This document shows positions 5,024 to 58,002 of a stretch of DNA of 58,002 nucleotides, piece by piece. The stretch is from a virus (Duplodnaviria > Caudoviricetes). The stretch's first letter is position 1; every line of letters starts with the position of its first letter. The notes under the pieces were generated by a model, which ran no database searches, had not been told where the DNA came from, and worked only from the letters and a program-made list of their open reading frames with translations. The stretch spans positions 1-58,002 of the IMG/VR virus record IMGVR_UViG_3300032322_001610. The stretch is one strand, 5' to 3'. A program made the translations under genes and the position numbers.

Positions 5024-5173
5024 TCAGCACTCTCTCCCCCCGACGATCCTCCCGAGGGCCATCAGGAACGCACCAGCAGACCCAAGGACCACGCGATCCT
5101 GGCACTCGAATATGGCATAAGCGATAGTCGCTGCCCCGGCTGCCATGATGGTTACCGCGATTGCGATCTTCAT
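5024..5173 (-). CDS. 49-aa membrane protein (not in ORF track)
   Basis: MKIAIAVTIMAAGAATIAYAIFECQDRVVLGSAGAFLMALGRIVGGREC; ATGA overlap with RHH gene. Confidence 0.55.
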   Translation of the reverse strand: MKIAIAVTIMAAGAATIAYAIFECQDRVVLGSAGAFLMALGRIVGGREC

Positions 5174-5298
5174 TGGATCGCACCCTCAAGGAGCTTCTCA
5201 ATTAGGGCACGCAGCGAAACTTTTTTAACCGCAGCGACCACCTTTAATTTTGCGTGAAGCGCCTCTGGCAACCTCACTTGGAGCATTTTTGTTTCCAT
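5170..5298 (-). CDS. 42-aa ribbon-helix-helix (Arc-like) regulator (not in ORF track)
   Basis: METKMLQVRLPEALHAKLKVVAAVKKVSLRALIEKLLEGAIQ fits RHH pattern; first gene after promoter. Confidence 0.8.
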   Translation of the reverse strand: METKMLQVRLPEALHAKLKVVAAVKKVSLRALIEKLLEGAIQ

Positions 5299-44094: not shown

Positions 44095-44291
44095 ACACTC
44101 CCGATCTCCCCGTTTTTCGCTTTTCGCGCTCTAACGCCCCGCCACGCAATCGCTACCCACGTTCAGCCTCCAACTACCAGACAGACTCCTCCGATGCGCT
44201 GGCGCCCGGTTTCCTCTTGATTGCTGGCGTAAATTATTCCAGGACCCCCACCCGGTTTTGATTTTCTGCCGGCTTTACGACCCCCACCCTC

Positions 44292-44511
44292 GGAACGCCG
44301 GAACGCGGGGAACGCCACCCCCCTATTTAGCTATATCTTTTCTCTCTTTGTACCCTATATATACTATACCCTATACCCTATAGCTTATATATATATATCC
44401 TGTTCCATATGTTCCAATATATATAAGTATATATAGAATGATAGAGATAGCTGGAAAAGAGGGGGCGAAAAAAGGTCTTCCGGCAAGCGTTCCGGGTGGG
44501 TTTTGGGTTCC
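44292..44511. other. Putative replication origin
   Basis: AT-rich (TA)n core flanked by GGAAC/GTTCC repeats in opposite orientations, just downstream of primase-helicase. Confidence 0.6.
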
Positions 44512-44670
44512 AGGTTGGGAGAAGAGAAGGCGAAGGTGGTGAGTTGGGTAGGGTATGAGGGCTGGCGGGGGGGAGGAGGAGAATGCGAACGAGAGGGGGG
44601 CTAACGTACCCCCCCCGTGCTCAGACCAGCCGCAGCCGACTCCGGCTACACTAGTCGCAACCCGCTCCGG

Positions 44671-46800
44671 CTACACCAGCCGCAGCCCCACGACCGCTCT
44701 CCCCTTCTTCAGGTTGATCCAGACCGGGTTCGGGGTGATCTCGAAGCCGGCGGACTTCAGGCATCCAACGAAGAACTTGGGCGAGACTGCCTTGCCTGCC
44801 CAGCGGCAGTACTGCTCCCGGAGAGTGGTGACGAACGTGCGCGCTTCCGGGTCGCGCTCGCAGGCCTCGTTGATCCACTCGAGGACGGGGTTCTGCTCGT
44901 TGCGGTACTCCTCGATCTCGGTGGCGCCGGCTGACGTAAATCTGCCATCGCGCTGGTAGAGACGTTGCGCTCCCTCGAGGGCCCAGAGGAGGATTCCCTC
45001 GATCTCGTTTCGCAGCTCGTCCCAGACTTTTTTGTTCTGCTCGGACTCCGGGATGACGTGGTTGAACTGGATGAGCAGCAGCCGGTTGAAGGTGCCGCGG
45101 GATCGGTCGTTGATGGCCGGCAGGTTGTTGGTGACGATGACGTGTTTGGCAATCGGGATGTCCATGATCGCCGGGAGGAACTTCTCGTCGAACTGGATTG
45201 GCTCCTCGGTGGAGACGAGGGTTTTGAAGCCGCCGTCCGCGATCATGGCGTCGGTGGGGAGTTCGGTTAAAGCGTTGATAAGTTTGCCCCTTAGGGGTGC
45301 GCGTTTGCGCGGGTCGTCCATGTCCTGAACGGAGACGGCGCACATATTTTCCGCCCCGACGAGTTCGCGGAGCAGGAAGGGGATGGTGCTCTTGCCGCAG
45401 TTGGATTCGCCGTAGCAGAGGAGTGCTTTCTTGTATCTGGCGTGGGACATCAGGCAGTAGCCGAAGAACTCCTGGAGGGCGAGTTTCTTGGCCTCCCCGT
45501 CGTCGTCCCCGCCGAAGTAGGTGTCGAGGCAGCGCATGAGGCAGTCGGCGGTGGCGTCGGGCTGGAGGGGGACGGGGACGCAGGCCTGGAGGTAGTCCTC
45601 GGGGTCGTGCGGCCGGAGTGTGAGGGTATCGCTACGGAGGTCGACGACGCCGTTGCCCACGGCGACCTCCCAGGGCTGGAGGAGACGCCACTGCTGCGTT
45701 CGGCGGTAGGTGGTGGCCCGGATGAAGTCGGCGACCTCGGCGCGGCGGCGCTGGGTTGTCCAGGCGTTGCCGTCGCGCTCCGCGGCGAGGGATTTTAGGC
45801 GCTCGGTGGTGATCTGCTTCCAGTGATTGACGCCGTATTCGTAGAGGAGCCCGTCCACGTTGATGACGCGGTGGTCGGCGAGGATGCCGGCGCCGATGGC
45901 GTTGGGCTTGATTTTCGGGTTGCCGGATCCGTCGTCGTCGTCTGTGTTATCAGGAAATGTGAGTGCGTTTTTATCAGGAAATGTGAGTGCGTTTGTATTG
46001 GGAAATGTGAGTGCGTTGCTATCAGATTTTCTGAGTGTGATGTTCGGCGAATACCTGCTGATAACCCACTCGACGATCCGCCTGACGTTCTGGTCGGGTG
46101 GGACCTCCTCGCACGTCTGGGCGGCGCGGAGGACCCGGTTGAGGATCTCATCTTCGGGGATGCCGCGGGCGCGGAGGGAGGAGGCGTACTTGAACAGCGT
46201 GGTGTGCTGGGTGCCCTTGCGGATGGAGGGAGGAAGGCTGAAGCGGCTCTGCGGGGAGGGCTGGCGGCGCTCGGAGGTGGCGACGAGGGCGACGAGCCAG
46301 TCGGGGGCGGTGGTGAGCAGAGACCGGGAGGGGGCCTCGTCGAGGTCGAGCCACTGGTAGATGTGCCCGCTGGGGTGAACGGACGGCGGCGCGACGACGT
46401 AGCCCCCGGTACCGCGGATGTCGACGCCGGGGTAGACCTGGCCGGCGCTGTTGCGGACGCTCGTGTTCGGCGGGAGGGCGTAGAACAGGTGGCGGCCCTT
46501 CGCGGTGATGGCGGTGAGCGAGTCGGGGAGTTCGTTGGCGTCGGCCCACAGCGCGGCGGCAGGACCGTCGAGGTCGACGACGAAGAAACCGTGGCCGGTG
46601 GCGATGCCGATGTTGGCGTCGGGGATCTGCTCCCACCACTCGCGGATGCGGTCGGCGTCGAAGGTGGCGTCCTTGCAGCCGTGCGGGGACGCGGGGATTT
46701 TGTCCCTCCGCTTGAGCGGGTGGACGGGCCAGCCGGCGCGGGCGTAGGAGATGGCGGCGTCGGCAAGGGACATGTTGGTGGGCGCGTTGGATAGGCTCAC
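44671..46800 (-). CDS. Primase-polymerase / SF3 (D5/P4-type) helicase fusion
   Basis: ANIGIATG..FFVVDLDG, DIRGTGGYVVAPPS; Walker A GESNCGKST. Confidence 0.92.
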   Translation of the reverse strand: MSLSNAPTNMSLADAAISYARAGWPVHPLKRRDKIPASPHGCKDATFDADRIREWWEQIPDANIGIATGHGFFVVDLDGPAAALWADANELPDSLTAITAKGRHLFYALPPNTSVRNSAGQVYPGVDIRGTGGYVVAPPSVHPSGHIYQWLDLDEAPSRSLLTTAPDWLVALVATSERRQPSPQSRFSLPPSIRKGTQHTTLFKYASSLRARGIPEDEILNRVLRAAQTCEEVPPDQNVRRIVEWVISRYSPNITLRKSDSNALTFPNTNALTFPDKNALTFPDNTDDDDGSGNPKIKPNAIGAGILADHRVINVDGLLYEYGVNHWKQITTERLKSLAAERDGNAWTTQRRRAEVADFIRATTYRRTQQWRLLQPWEVAVGNGVVDLRSDTLTLRPHDPEDYLQACVPVPLQPDATADCLMRCLDTYFGGDDDGEAKKLALQEFFGYCLMSHARYKKALLCYGESNCGKSTIPFLLRELVGAENMCAVSVQDMDDPRKRAPLRGKLINALTELPTDAMIADGGFKTLVSTEEPIQFDEKFLPAIMDIPIAKHVIVTNNLPAINDRSRGTFNRLLLIQFNHVIPESEQNKKVWDELRNEIEGILLWALEGAQRLYQRDGRFTSAGATEIEEYRNEQNPVLEWINEACERDPEARTFVTTLREQYCRWAGKAVSPKFFVGCLKSAGFEITPNPVWINLKKGRAVVGLRLV
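45947..46018. repeat. Three 24-bp AT-rich repeats inside primase gene
   Basis: TTATCAGGAAATGTGAGTGCGTTT x2 plus variant; encode NALTFP(N/D). Confidence 0.9.
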
Positions 46801-46940
46801 GAGATTTTCCTGAGTAGCGGGAGTGTGGAGGTAAGTAGGAGTAAAGGGGTCACGAGATTTTCCTGAGTAAAAGGGTCACGATGTTTTCCTGAGTAAAAGG
46901 GTCACGATGTTTTCCTGAGTAAAAGGGTCACGATGTTTTC
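46797..46940 (-). repeat. 26-bp tandem repeat encoding four GTGA-overlapping minigenes
   Basis: Unit CCCTTTTACTCAGGAAAACATCGTGA on - strand; ORFs 46931-46902, 46905-46876, 46879-46850, 46853-46797. Confidence 0.85.
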
Positions 46941-49387
46941 TTCCTGAGGTTCTTGATTTCCCATGCGATTTTCCAGCGGTAGGGCGGCTTGGTTTTGTAC
47001 TTGTTGACGAACTTCGCGAAGGCGTACCCTCTAGAATACGGGGTACCGTCGGACTTCGTCCGCGTGTGCTGCTGGTGCATCCACCAGTCGTAGTCCCGCT
47101 GGGCCTCGGGCGGCAGGGATTGCACAGCGATAGTGGGGTCGATGATCTGAAGTTCGCCGGGGCGTGATGCCGGCAACTGCTTGCGGACAGAGAAAACGTA
47201 CCCGCAAGCGCACGCGAGTTCGCTCGGGGGGCAGACCCGGAAGCACTCGGGGCAGACCTTGACGGTCTCCTCCTTGGGGAGGGCCTCGAATTTCTTCTTG
47301 GGCTTGTCGTCGGACAGCTCCCACTCCCGCGGGGTATCGACGAGGAGGTGGCGCTGCCAGCAGTTCCCGTGGTCGAGGATCAGGCAGTCGGTTTTGCCGG
47401 GGTGGGAGCGCAGGGCCCGTCCCGCCATCTGGAGGTAGAGGGAGAGGGACATCGTGGGGCGGGCGATGACGCAGCACGACACGCTCGGGCAGTCCCATCC
47501 CTCGGTGAGGACGGCGCAGTTGACGACGACCTGGGTCCTGCCGGAGGCCAGACGGGCGAGGATGCCCTCGCGAGTGGGGCGGGCAGTGGTGCCATCGAGG
47601 TGCTCGGCGGCGACTCCGGCCTTGCGAAACTGCTCGGTGATCGCCTGCGAGTGCTTGACGCTGACCGCGAAGACGACGGTGACCCGGTCGGAGGCGTGCT
47701 TGCGCCACTGCTCGACGACGTCGCCGACGAGTTGGGCAGTGTTCATGCGGGACTCGAGTTCGTCGGTCTTGTAGTCGCCCGCGGATTTCCCGATGCCCGC
47801 AAGGTCCACGCCGACGCAGCCGTAGGTGATGGGCGGGACGAGGTAGCCGAGCTGGATGAGGTCCCCGATCTGCGGGCACTGGACCATCGTGTGAAAGAGA
47901 TTCCCGCCGAGGCCCCGGCCATCGGTACGGACTGGGGTAGCGGTGAGCCCGATGACGACCGGGTTGCCGCACTGCCGGAGGACCTCTTGGTACGACTCGC
48001 CGCGGGCGCGGTGGCACTCGTCGATGATGACGATATTTGGGGTCCAGGGGAGATCGCGCCGGATGATGGTCTGGACGGATCCGACCTGCACGGGGAGGCG
48101 AGGCCGGTCGCGCCAGTGGTTCGCCATGATGACCCCATGGGGAACGCCGGCTCCGTCGAGGCGGGCGCTGGCCTGGTCGATGAGTTCCTTGCGGTGAGCG
48201 AGGAAGAGGATGCGGTTACCCTTGGCGATGGCGGATTCGATGAGGGCGGCGGCGATAGTGGTGTTATGGGTGACAGTAAAATCGCCCAGCATGAATAGGC
48301 GATCTGGACCGCTAAGCGTGAATCCAAAGTACTCTCCTATGCCGATATCCTCAACTGAAAAACCTACATTTAGGGCATCCTTTATTTGACCCCTAGCTTT
48401 GGCTTGCTTGCGCGGAACGATGCAGGGGATGTCCTGTAAGTGCCCTGAAATTGTAATCCGATAAGCCAGGGAGTACTTATTGACGGCCTTGGCGGCGTAG
48501 GCAGCCATCCCAAGTGATCGACATAGATACAGAATGTCGTCGCAGAGCCTTTTCGATACCGTCGATATTTCGTAGTAGTTTTTCGTTAGATGTCCGTCAG
48601 TGTCAAGCAACCCGGCCAATAAAGATAGCCTTGTCGCTCGGTCGTTCTGCAGGTACTCTTGCGGAATGTGTTTATTATTTAGAACGCCAAGGTGGTCTAG
48701 CTTTCGATGGATGGATTTGTTGTTTACCTGATCTCCCCCGCGCTTTCCTGTGATACTGTGAATGACCGCCTTGCTTCTGGTGTCCTGGTAAAGCTTGCAC
48801 GTGCACCCGTTGATCTCAGCGAAGGCTTTAAGGTATTCAGTTAGCTCTGGCTCTATGTTAGTGATACGGGCACTGGCCGAATGCCCATCACCTAGCCAGA
48901 CGCCTAGGAAGTACGGGTCAATTGGAACCTCTCGCGCCTGGAAACTAACCCCTCGCCTGTAAAGCTTAAGGATGTGCTTCTTTGTGCGATTTAATGCAAG
49001 GTATTCACGAACGGACATGTTGTAGACGCCACCCTTCACTAGGCCGCAGTCTGTATGGTTAGAGATTAATGACAGGACATGCGATTCGTTGCAGGTCCAC
49101 GCTTCCCCCTTCTTTGGGCTTACTCGGTACATTCGTTCCGTGCCATTGCAAATAGACGTTACACGCCTTGGAAGTGAGTCTGGTCCCATCACTGCGTCGC
49201 CAATGGTCACGCCCTCTACTGGCTTTGTAGATCCATCTGCCATGAGTACTGGTGTGCCTTTCCCGAGACACTTCCCGGCGCCCGTGGGGGCGACGAGCAG
49301 GATGCGCCGGATTCCGTCCCGGATGGCCTGCCGGATCTGGTCGAGGGCGATGGCCTGGAAGGGCCGGAGGATGATGGGGGAGTTCAC
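46928..49387 (-). CDS. SF2 DExH helicase (RadD/YejH-like) with C-terminal Zn finger, intein-interrupted
   Basis: LRPFQ, APTGAGK|T, DECH, TAT, LTEGWD, QMAGRALR, CPEC..CACG; GTG 49387 overlaps VRR-NUC stop. Confidence 0.92.
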   Translation of the reverse strand: MNSPIILRPFQAIALDQIRQAIRDGIRRILLVAPTGAGKCLGKGTPVLMADGSTKPVEGVTIGDAVMGPDSLPRRVTSICNGTERMYRVSPKKGEAWTCNESHVLSLISNHTDCGLVKGGVYNMSVREYLALNRTKKHILKLYRRGVSFQAREVPIDPYFLGVWLGDGHSASARITNIEPELTEYLKAFAEINGCTCKLYQDTRSKAVIHSITGKRGGDQVNNKSIHRKLDHLGVLNNKHIPQEYLQNDRATRLSLLAGLLDTDGHLTKNYYEISTVSKRLCDDILYLCRSLGMAAYAAKAVNKYSLAYRITISGHLQDIPCIVPRKQAKARGQIKDALNVGFSVEDIGIGEYFGFTLSGPDRLFMLGDFTVTHNTTIAAALIESAIAKGNRILFLAHRKELIDQASARLDGAGVPHGVIMANHWRDRPRLPVQVGSVQTIIRRDLPWTPNIVIIDECHRARGESYQEVLRQCGNPVVIGLTATPVRTDGRGLGGNLFHTMVQCPQIGDLIQLGYLVPPITYGCVGVDLAGIGKSAGDYKTDELESRMNTAQLVGDVVEQWRKHASDRVTVVFAVSVKHSQAITEQFRKAGVAAEHLDGTTARPTREGILARLASGRTQVVVNCAVLTEGWDCPSVSCCVIARPTMSLSLYLQMAGRALRSHPGKTDCLILDHGNCWQRHLLVDTPREWELSDDKPKKKFEALPKEETVKVCPECFRVCPPSELACACGYVFSVRKQLPASRPGELQIIDPTIAVQSLPPEAQRDYDWWMHQQHTRTKSDGTPYSRGYAFAKFVNKYKTKPPYRWKIAWEIKNLRKKTS
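48263..49270 (-). mobile_element. Intein (336 aa) with LAGLIDADG homing endonuclease
   Basis: CLGKGTPVLMADG start, VTHN end, +1 Thr; FLGVWLGDG and LLAGLLDTDG; lower GC than flanks. Confidence 0.95.
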
Positions 49388-49815
49388 GAGAGCAGCCCCC
49401 ACTCCGCGAACTTGCGTTCGAGTTCCTCCACTGAAGAGACCCAGCAGACACGGAACCCGCGGTGCTGGAGCACGGCCATGTACTCGCGCTGGATCTTCCG
49501 GGGGCGCTCGCGGGGCCGCTTGACCTCGACCCAGACCGGTGGATGCTCCGGGTGGAGGAACAGCCAGTCGGGCATGCCTGGGTCGTTGATGCGCTGCGGC
49601 CGGCCGTCGCGGGTGTAGTAGACCCCAACGTGATTCCGGTGGCACCGCCACCCCCGGTCGATGGCCCACCGTAGGATGTAACGGGTGACCTCGGCTTCGG
49701 AGGGGAGGTGGGTAGTGGGAGGGTCGGGGGAAGCCGGCTCAGACGCCGGCTCAGAAGAAGGCTCAGAAGAAGGCTCAGAAGAAGGCCCAGAAGAAGGCCC
49801 AGAAGAAGGCTTCAT
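49384..49815 (-). CDS. VRR-NUC nuclease with repetitive N-terminus
   Basis: E, GMPD, VEVK, Q motifs; (PSSE/G)n start. Confidence 0.85.
   Translation of the reverse strand: MKPSSGPSSGPSSEPSSEPSSEPASEPASPDPPTTHLPSEAEVTRYILRWAIDRGWRCHRNHVGVYYTRDGRPQRINDPGMPDWLFLHPEHPPVWVEVKRPRERPRKIQREYMAVLQHRGFRVCWVSSVEELERKFAEWGLLS
49733..49810. repeat. 12-bp tandem repeat (~6.5 units)
   Basis: GAAGGC(T/C)CAGAA units. Confidence 0.85.
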
Positions 49816-51898: not shown

Positions 51899-52185
51899 CA
51901 CTTCCCTCCCCGCAGCGATTCCTTCACCCGAAACAGCTCGTATTCCCGCCCCAGTTGGAAGGCGTAGACGAACATGCTGGCGCATTTGGTGAGATCGTCA
52001 AAGCGATCATCCTCGGCGAGCCCCTGGACGATCTCGCAGACGGCGTCATTATCGTTCGCCGCATTGGCGATCAGCTCGGCCTGGTCCTGCCCGTACAACT
52101 TCTCGGCGGCCAGCGGAGCCTGAGCGAAGAAGCGCTCCAGTTCATCTTTCGTGACGCTTTTAATCATGCAATCTCCTTGGTTCAT
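51898..52185 (-). CDS. Hypothetical protein
   Basis: ORF in operon. Confidence 0.6.
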   Translation of the reverse strand: MNQGDCMIKSVTKDELERFFAQAPLAAEKLYGQDQAELIANAANDNDAVCEIVQGLAEDDRFDDLTKCASMFVYAFQLGREYELFRVKESLRGGK

Positions 52186-52199
52186 CTTTCGTTACTTCG

Positions 52200-52460
52200 T
52201 TAATCATGTAATCTCCTCAGTTTTGTCTGTAGTTCGATTAGGATTTCTGCTCGCATATCCACGTCCCGGACATCCTCGCGGAGCCGGTTCAGGGCCTGTG
52301 GCGACCAATCGATTTTCCAACGCTGGATCCGCACCATGCCGGCGATGATTTCGCGTTGCTGTTCGGCGATCCGGCGCTCGAGATACGGACGGGTGATCTC
52401 GTGCTCGGCTTGTGCTGTCTGGGCATCCTCGGGTGTCTTGCGGCGCACGTAAATGCTCAT
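52200..52460 (-). CDS. Hypothetical protein
   Basis: ATGA-coupled ORF. Confidence 0.6.
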   Translation of the reverse strand: MSIYVRRKTPEDAQTAQAEHEITRPYLERRIAEQQREIIAGMVRIQRWKIDWSPQALNRLREDVRDVDMRAEILIELQTKLRRLHD

Positions 52461-57565: not shown

Positions 57566-58002
57566 TGTTCCTCACCTCCAGCACGTCCCGGATCGCCCTC
57601 AAATAAACGCCGTACTCCGCAATCTGCTGCTCGGTGTAGCCAGCTTTGCGCCCCACAGCCTCGAATCGCTCCAGCCACTCGGCCAACGTCATGCGCTGGC
57701 AGCCTATGCGAATGTCGTCGTCAATGGCAACGATGCTGTCAAGGGATGCTTGAATGACGGCAACGTACTGCTTACATTGGCTCAGGTCCGCCCCGCGCAG
57801 GTTCGCCCCGCGCAGGTTCGCCCCGCGCAGGTCCGCCCCGCGCAGGTTCGCCCCGCGCAGGTTCGCCCCGCGCAGGTCCGCCTCGCTCAGGTCCGCCCCG
57901 CTCAGGTCCGCCCCGCGCAGGTCCGCCTCGCTCAGGTCCGCCTCGCTCAGGTCCGCCCCGCGCAGGTCCGCCTCGCTCAGGTCCGCCTCGCTCAGGTCCG
58001 CC
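57546..58002 (-). CDS. Pentapeptide-repeat protein, 3' part
   Basis: Repeats then ...[13 protein letters not shown]...; stop at 57546. Confidence 0.9.

Follow-up and report, generated by a model that had tools for sequence, protein, structure and literature searches.

The helicase-primase junction

The stretch of DNA considered here, called the window in the following, is the complete IMG/VR virus record IMGVR_UViG_3300032322_001610 (Duplodnaviria; Caudoviricetes), which has 58,002 bp, repeat ends and 60.9% G+C. Our subject is the place on its minus strand where a gene for an SF2 helicase is followed by a gene for a primase-helicase, called the primase below. A tandem array of 26-nt units lies across this junction and contains four very short open reading frames (mini-ORFs), which lead from the stop codon of the helicase to the start codon of the primase (Table 1). 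The stop codon of each frame overlaps the start codon of the following one in a GTGA tetranucleotide. The five overlaps (46931, 46905, 46879, 46853 and 46800) were read on the minus strand and then recomputed by a script, which returned the chain with every coordinate given for it in a preliminary description of this DNA. At all five, the upstream stop overlaps the downstream start by 4 nt on the same strand, which is the -4 nt geometry of coupled gene pairs. The spacings between successive GTGA are 26, 26, 26 and 53 nt, all equal to 2 mod 3; hence each mini-ORF stops on a TGA which overlaps the next GTG.

The units have a common layout: codons of the helicase tail including an AGGA, which resembles the core of a Shine-Dalgarno (SD) sequence, then a 7-nt spacer, the GTGA, and 8 nt which match codons 2-4 of the primase. 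The preliminary description had placed AGGA 7 nt before the four downstream GTG codons, and this is what we find; the distance before the first GTG is 10 nt because that unit has 3 extra nt. The final codons of the helicase (LRKKTS) with their stop TGA (46930-46928) already are the first repeat unit. When the unit was sought with at most 3 mismatches, 3 matches were obtained against 0.00 expected from 100 shuffles; all are inside the array and none elsewhere in the 58,002-bp record. The last link, of 53 nt, is made of 26 + 27 nt, and its 27-nt stretch, which has neither AGGA nor GTGA, may be a decayed unit.

The start of the primase could be read at two places in the window, since an in-frame ATG stands nine codons past the GTG. 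Two relatives described below (L025 and L026) keep the GTG and have no ATG at that position, so that the GTG is favoured as the probable start.

Table 1. Features of the two duplicated junctions and of their surroundings (positions in the window)
Feature	Position	Strand	Remarks
SF2 helicase gene, 913-aa ORF	46928..49669	-	Pfam ResIII 4e-20 and Helicase_C 1e-13; Hint/LAGLIDADG intein inside
Primase-helicase gene, 709-aa ORF	44671..46800	-	Pfam Prim-Pol 2e-42, D5_N, DUF5906
26-nt tandem array	46839..46940	-	Tandem Repeats Finder (TRF): period 26, 3.9 copies, 96% matches, score 183
Mini-ORF 1, MTLLLRKTS	46902..46931	-	GTG overlaps helicase TGA
Mini-ORF 2, MTLLLRKTS	46876..46905	-	GTGA chain
Mini-ORF 3, MTLLLRKIS	46850..46879	-	GTGA chain
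Mini-ORF 4, 18 codons, MTPLLLLTSTLPLLRKIS	46797..46853	-	TGA overlaps primase GTG at 46800
AGGA, SD-like core of the first GTG	46942-46945	-	10 nt before the GTG
AGGA, cores of three further GTGs	46861-46864, 46887-46890, 46913-46916	-	7 nt before each GTG
AGGA, SD-like core of the primase GTG	46808..46811	-	7 nt before the GTG
27-nt stretch in mini-ORF 4	46815..46841	-	no AGGA or GTGA; global alignment to the unit, score reached by 104/2000 shuffles
Mini-ORF MINEVTKDEPRRLHD, 15 codons	52160..52207	-	between 86-aa ORF ending LRRLHD and gene starting MIKSVTKDE

Within the array GC drops to 0.43-0.47, a local trough between flanks of about 0.7. The array RNA folds more weakly than shuffled sequences (-28.7 kcal/mol, where the shuffles average -36.1 kcal/mol; z = +1.9), 197 of the 200 shuffles folding at least as well. 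This unusual lack of structure means that the AGGA sites and the starts would be open to ribosomes. Neither promoter-like sites (0 against 1.7 expected) nor terminators were found in the array, which also has no Rfam match at E<=1; no tRNA genes were found. Some codons of the mini-ORFs are rare in this genome: in the 36 long ORFs, TTA accounts for 2.7% among the 1234 Leu codons, and AGG for 8.9% among the 1129 Arg codons.

Origin of the array

The composition of the unit tells where it comes from. The 18 nt ahead of each GTGA are the helicase tail, while the 8 nt which follow the internal GTGAs (CCCTTTTA, CCCCTTTA and CCCCCTTA) match the sequence found after the primase GTG in L025 and L026 (CCCCCTTT). 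A unit composed of the helicase 3' end and of primase codons 1-4 bears the mark of a tandem duplication that ran across the junction, and it implies that every internal unit encodes a chimera whose N-terminus is primase-like and whose C-terminus is helicase-like. Hence we concluded, from this composition, that the array is a plain tandem duplication of a junction with the arrangement of translationally coupled genes, the simpler origin that the preliminary description had already put forward.

Natural variation

Relatives were collected with the primase as the query. The viral_contigs set gave 22 loci, 20 of which were examined, L022 and L023 being dropped as their matches begin near residue 296-300, short of the junction. 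The metagenome_contigs set gave 11 loci, from which we dropped L031-L034 (matches from residue 69 or later) and L030 (unclear start). The genome_contigs set contributed one relative, at 45% identity.

Three metagenome contigs, L024, L025 and L026, are 93-94% identical to the window over the first 200 primase residues and carry homologous arrays. L024 has one mini-ORF (spacing 26), L025 four (spacings 50, 50, 50 and 53) and L026 three (50, 50 and 53), and in all three the helicase frame is closed by the first TGA. A fourth array comes from an independent lake study (run X5), in which a single 30-kb contig crosses the whole 1.8-kb stretch. It differs from the window at 39 letters (about 98% identity) and has one 26-nt unit fewer (at 46858), with no other indel in the array. 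Counted over the five array-bearing sequences, the window included, the numbers of links are thus 1, 3, 3, 4 and 4: the copy number which had been supposed to be variable does vary in nature.

The 50-nt link was new to us. It is made of 26 + 24 nt, the 24-nt sub-unit having lost the GTGA plus 2 nt, and this loss fused two mini-ORFs in frame. Like all the others, it equals 2 mod 3, so that 12 of 12 spacings in the array-bearing sequences have this residue. A comparison of spacings in related phages had been suggested beforehand as a check on the chain, and its outcome is positive in every array-bearing relative found. The peptides differ between relatives, the mini-ORFs reading MTLLLRKTS, MTPLLRKIS or MNLLLRKISSPLLRKIS. 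At the nucleotide level TCGTGA is unchanged in 16 of 16 junctions and AGGAAAA is at the same offset in 15 of them, the 16th having a 3-nt insertion; the changes are confined to the 2-nt spacer and to the 8 nt after GTGA. These 16 junctions are not independent, since L025 and L026 have units in common.

Farther away the array is absent: none of the 20 viral_contigs relatives (50-71% identity) has it at the primase junction. Two pattern scans of viral_contigs for the unit gave 0 stretches in one case and 3 in the other, each of the 3 being a single match in an unrelated coding region. What the relatives share is the overlap itself. All 20 viral_contigs relatives have a start candidate with an overlap of 1-17 nt with the upstream stop, and so do 4 of 5 further ones. 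The gene before the primase is a helicase at some loci and a 220-aa DUF3223 gene at others; an overlap of stop and start is therefore normal for the primase in this family, whatever the upstream gene.

The DUF3223 gene precedes the primase in 9 of the 20 viral_contigs relatives (L002, L003, L004, L011, L012, L015, L017, L018 and L020) and also in L027 and L029, and its final LLRRK codons hold the SD sequence of the primase. It has no match in the window at E<=10. We considered whether the last link of the array could be a remnant of the tail of this gene and rejected the idea: in the best case (L018) 25 of 500 shuffles reached the similarity seen, and in five more comparisons only the AGGAAA(A) core or less was shared.

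The helicase varies among relatives as well. In the window its intein (Hint/LAGLIDADG) sits after the Walker A motif, at residues of about 134-468; L025 and L026 have a 91% identical, intein-less allele of 490 codons (L025 817-2286).

Sampled 31-mers of the region were found in lake-water metagenomes, in 20 runs from 17 studies, none of them an RNA run. A megablast search gave no match among cultured phages. With the primase, tblastn returned 1541 records, every one below 60% identity and none covering 80%.

A second duplicated junction and other repeats

TRF reports at 52140..52217 a 40-nt x2 duplication which includes a ATGATTAA stop/start junction. The duplication creates a mini-ORF, MINEVTKDEPRRLHD, in which the head of the downstream gene (MIKSVTKDE) is followed by the end of the 86-aa ORF upstream (LRRLHD); the stop of this mini-ORF is a TAA which overlaps the next ATG. 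The overlap in ATGATTAA has 8 nt and requires a length of 1 mod 3, which 40 fits. Judged by its composition, this repeat is a second, independent case of the same phenomenon in this genome. TRF lists 60 rows for the genome. Among the strong tandem repeats (period of 10 or more, 1.9 copies or more), only three in the window have a period which is not a multiple of 3: the 26-nt array, this 40-nt repeat, and a 25-nt x2.6 repeat at 44625-44688 across the primase stop codon.

A 24-nt in-frame repeat (45947-46040, minus strand) lies in the primase linker between Prim-Pol and D5_N and encodes NALTFP-type octapeptides. Its CACATTTCC core occurs 3 times in the window, 2 times in L025 and L026 and once in L024, and the X5 contig lacks one 24-nt unit of it (at 45977). 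L024 has in addition, at 5162-5219, three imperfect copies of a CTCACATTT-type motif, which also forms the primase-linker repeat; they are ~0.5 kb downstream of the primase and adjoin an AT-rich stretch.

A candidate replication origin is located downstream of the primase at 44280-44500, with an extremely AT-rich part at about 44330-44450 (GC 0.26 at 44350-44449) flanked by short GCGTTCC-type repeats. At the same place the relatives have 11-nt repeats in 3-4 copies (about 6850 in L002, L003, L004 and L018; 6288 in L006). A 12-nt x6.3 repeat is found at 49736-49811, just upstream of the helicase start. Finally, the record ends (1-192 and 57783-58002) consist of a 15-nt tandem repeat in 12.8 and 14.7 copies; since both are 15-nt arrays, what looks like a "direct terminal repeat" may come from an assembly that broke within a single long array.

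A repeat probably filtered by its reading frame

We think it probable that the junction carries a slippage-prone array of complete stop/SD/start cassettes, of which only the lengths that preserve the chain survive. A 26-nt segment straddling the putatively coupled junction would have been duplicated by replication slippage or by unequal recombination, each unit bringing with it the end codons of the helicase with the SD core AGGA of the primase, the GTGA overlap and the first primase codons. Ribosomes which leave the helicase would reinitiate link by link, or would load afresh at the exposed AGGA sites. By either route the last unit would be an intact native initiation region of the primase, and the primase start would never be crossed out of frame, while a duplication of the wrong length would drive ribosomes over this start out of frame. 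The copy number would then grow and shrink fast, with selection removing the variants that break the chain, and we propose that this is why all the lengths seen preserve it. Serial reinitiation and purifying selection on the frame would both be at work, and the effect of the copy number on primase output would be small or modest.

The arithmetic of the lengths is as follows. The required residue is fitted by the classes 26, +27 and -2 here and by 40 at the second junction; with a prior of 1/3 for each this amounts to 1/81. Only the lengths 50 and 40, which were unseen when the preliminary description was made, are unbiased tests, and together they give 1/9. The constancy of TCGTGA and of AGGAAAA, with changes limited to the spacer and to the 8 nt after GTGA, is in keeping with such a filter, although the junctions counted are not independent.

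Several observations weigh against this explanation. Independent events are few, about four length classes in one clade, and the 12 spacings are for the most part no independent tests, because the duplication of a whole unit keeps the chain by construction. The exposed AGGA sites may allow de novo initiation of the primase, in which case the coupling and the chain might be irrelevant. The rare codons of the mini-ORFs could make the relay inefficient. For the 27-nt piece, descent from a unit is a tentative reading, and the runs in which the region was found offer no RNA. Furthermore, the linker repeat of 24 nt varies in the same relatives, and repeat instability is therefore general in the clade.

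The arrays offer a natural allelic series (1, 3 or 4 links; 26-, 50- and 53-nt) for measuring the efficiency of reinitiation by bacterial ribosomes through consecutive -4 overlaps. They suggest as a rule that tandem duplications over stop/start overlaps persist only at lengths which keep the chain. In annotation, such arrays are best taken neither for genes nor for frameshift errors.

Alternative explanations

The array could be an adaptive tuner, a contingency locus whose copy number matters because each added link lowers the output of primase relative to helicase or, through additional loading sites, raises it. This would agree with the occurrence of 1, 3, 3, 4 and 4 links among phages with 93-94% identity in the primase N-terminus and in a contig which is about 98% identical, and with the frame being kept through the derived 50- and 53-nt links; coupling efficiency is also reported to depend on the stop-start spacing and on the sequence context (PMC12548453). 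Against it, the in-frame repeat of the primase linker varies too, which points to general repeat instability rather than to a dedicated switch; the array is absent in relatives at 71% and about 50% identity; and initiation independent of coupling is possible at the exposed AGGA sites. We hold a tuner to be unlikely. The same doubt applies to its widest form, in which selection would maintain an unbroken relay, the number of links (1 to 4) would set the passage of ribosomes from helicase to primase as a fast-mutating dial of replisome dosage, and the duplication of junctions would be a general, frame-filtered route to such dials, with two of them in this genome.

At the other extreme, the repeat could be purely neutral, the chain being a coincidence of the unit length which selection does not see. 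The chain is preserved of itself when whole units are gained or lost; whatever is inserted between the two genes, the first TGA ends the helicase and the primase has an AGGA and a GTG of its own; and the genome has many other tandem repeats. However, four separate length classes fit the residue (the 1/81 given above, or 1/9 for the two newly found ones), and under a neutral process sub-units without GTGA should have lost the frame two times in three. We therefore give little credence to pure neutrality.

The array could also act as DNA, as iterons, an origin, an operator or another protein-binding array, with the mini-ORFs as a by-product. The GC trough would suit such an element, and so would the linker array at 45947..46040, which shares TCAGGAAA, inverted, with the junction unit (TCAGGAAA matches the window 10 times, where 1.4 matches are expected). 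Yet the two arrays are only weakly alike, their score being reached by 38 of 1000 shuffles and by 16 of 510 genomic windows, and we did not retain a motif common to both beyond a minor rival. The helicase tail and the primase head explain the unit fully, and the array offers no promoter-like or Rfam match. The candidate origin of the family is downstream of the primase, in the window as in the relatives: its AT-rich element and short repeats are about 2.4 kb away, and 0 of the 20 viral_contigs relatives have the array. A DNA-level function is thus very improbable.

The mini-ORFs might instead be minigenes which act on the translation apparatus through peptidyl-tRNA drop-off, or functional micropeptides. 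Each one has a start at the right distance from an AGGA, rare codons are present, and inhibition by minigenes of 3-8 codons is described in the abstract of PMC2490762. With 9-18 codons they exceed the range given there, their sequence is set by the flanking gene ends and differs among relatives, and their number ranges from 1 to 4; we find this scarcely credible.

The assembly was checked on Logan contigs only, from four of the 20 runs. In run X1, a possible source of the record, the 31-mer 46910-46940, which occurs 3x in the window, has a depth of 490 against 149 in the flanks (3.3x), and the 55-nt unitig 46885-46939 has a depth of 335, or 2.2x the flanks. The depth agrees with the assembled copy number. 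That the array is an artefact of short-read metagenome assembly, as unitigs stopping within it in X1, X2 and X4 might suggest (in X1 such breaks are expected because k=31), is hardly conceivable in view of these depths, of the independent 30-kb contig which crosses it with one unit fewer, and of the homologous arrays on three JGI contigs.

Comparison with known systems

In the open literature searched we found no description of a relay of tandem mini-ORFs between phage genes. Toxic minigenes of the lambda bar type have 2-8 codons and act by peptidyl-tRNA drop-off. The mini-ORFs reported here are likewise very short, SD-driven frames in a phage, but their 9, 9, 9 and 18 codons place them outside the range of about 2-8 which characterizes bar.

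The likeness is greater with leader or relay ORFs (of the upstream-ORF type or of bicistronic designs), where, according to PMC12548453, a short ORF only hands the ribosome to the next start. Those ORFs are single and fixed, whereas the phage ones are repeated, chimeric and polymorphic. The same source states that the efficiency of coupling peaks at -4 to +3 nt and falls at larger spacings. Every link in the phage has the usual -4 overlap and, upstream of it, an SD-like core, as in ordinary -4 coupling (ATGA/GTGA; by termination-reinitiation or RNA unfolding). The difference is that ordinary coupling has one junction, and the phage array a row of as many as four relay ORFs which are non-functional and vary in number.

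The closest described system is, by our comparison, that formed by mycobacterial interspersed repetitive units (MIRUs). MIRU-VNTR (variable number of tandem repeats) loci were first found between senX3 and regX3, and the original MIRU paper, that of Supply in 1997, is said to report chained ORFs in the senX3-regX3 spacer. More recent papers describe MIRUs as co-oriented units of 40-100 bp, variable in copy number, which form direct tandem repeats in the operon spacers of mycobacteria. They have small ORFs (PMC5056196), the ends of which overlap the adjacent genes (PMC3184786), and the coupling of these ORFs to the downstream gene is at -4 nt, an arrangement thought to minimise the effect of the insertion (PMC12548453). 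The preliminary description knew of no described equivalent, and the copy-number-variable MIRU repeats with their -4 nt-coupled small ORFs contradict it on this point.

The phage array is also a direct tandem repeat between co-oriented genes of an operon; its unit also has a small ORF, the -4 nt coupling geometry and an overlap with the ends of the flanking genes; and its copy number is also polymorphic (1, 3, 3, 4 and 4 links in five sequences). It differs in size and in distribution, since MIRUs of 40-100 bp occupy 41 loci in H37Rv and the phage unit of 26 nt a single locus. MIRUs are moreover thought to be mobile, whereas the phage unit is built from its own two flanking gene ends and was not inserted. 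Hence we regard the phage array as resembling a MIRU locus without being a member of the family. A MIRU-like solution, with a relay ORF inside the repeats themselves to preserve the coupling of the operon, would arise independently in phages through the simple duplication of a junction.

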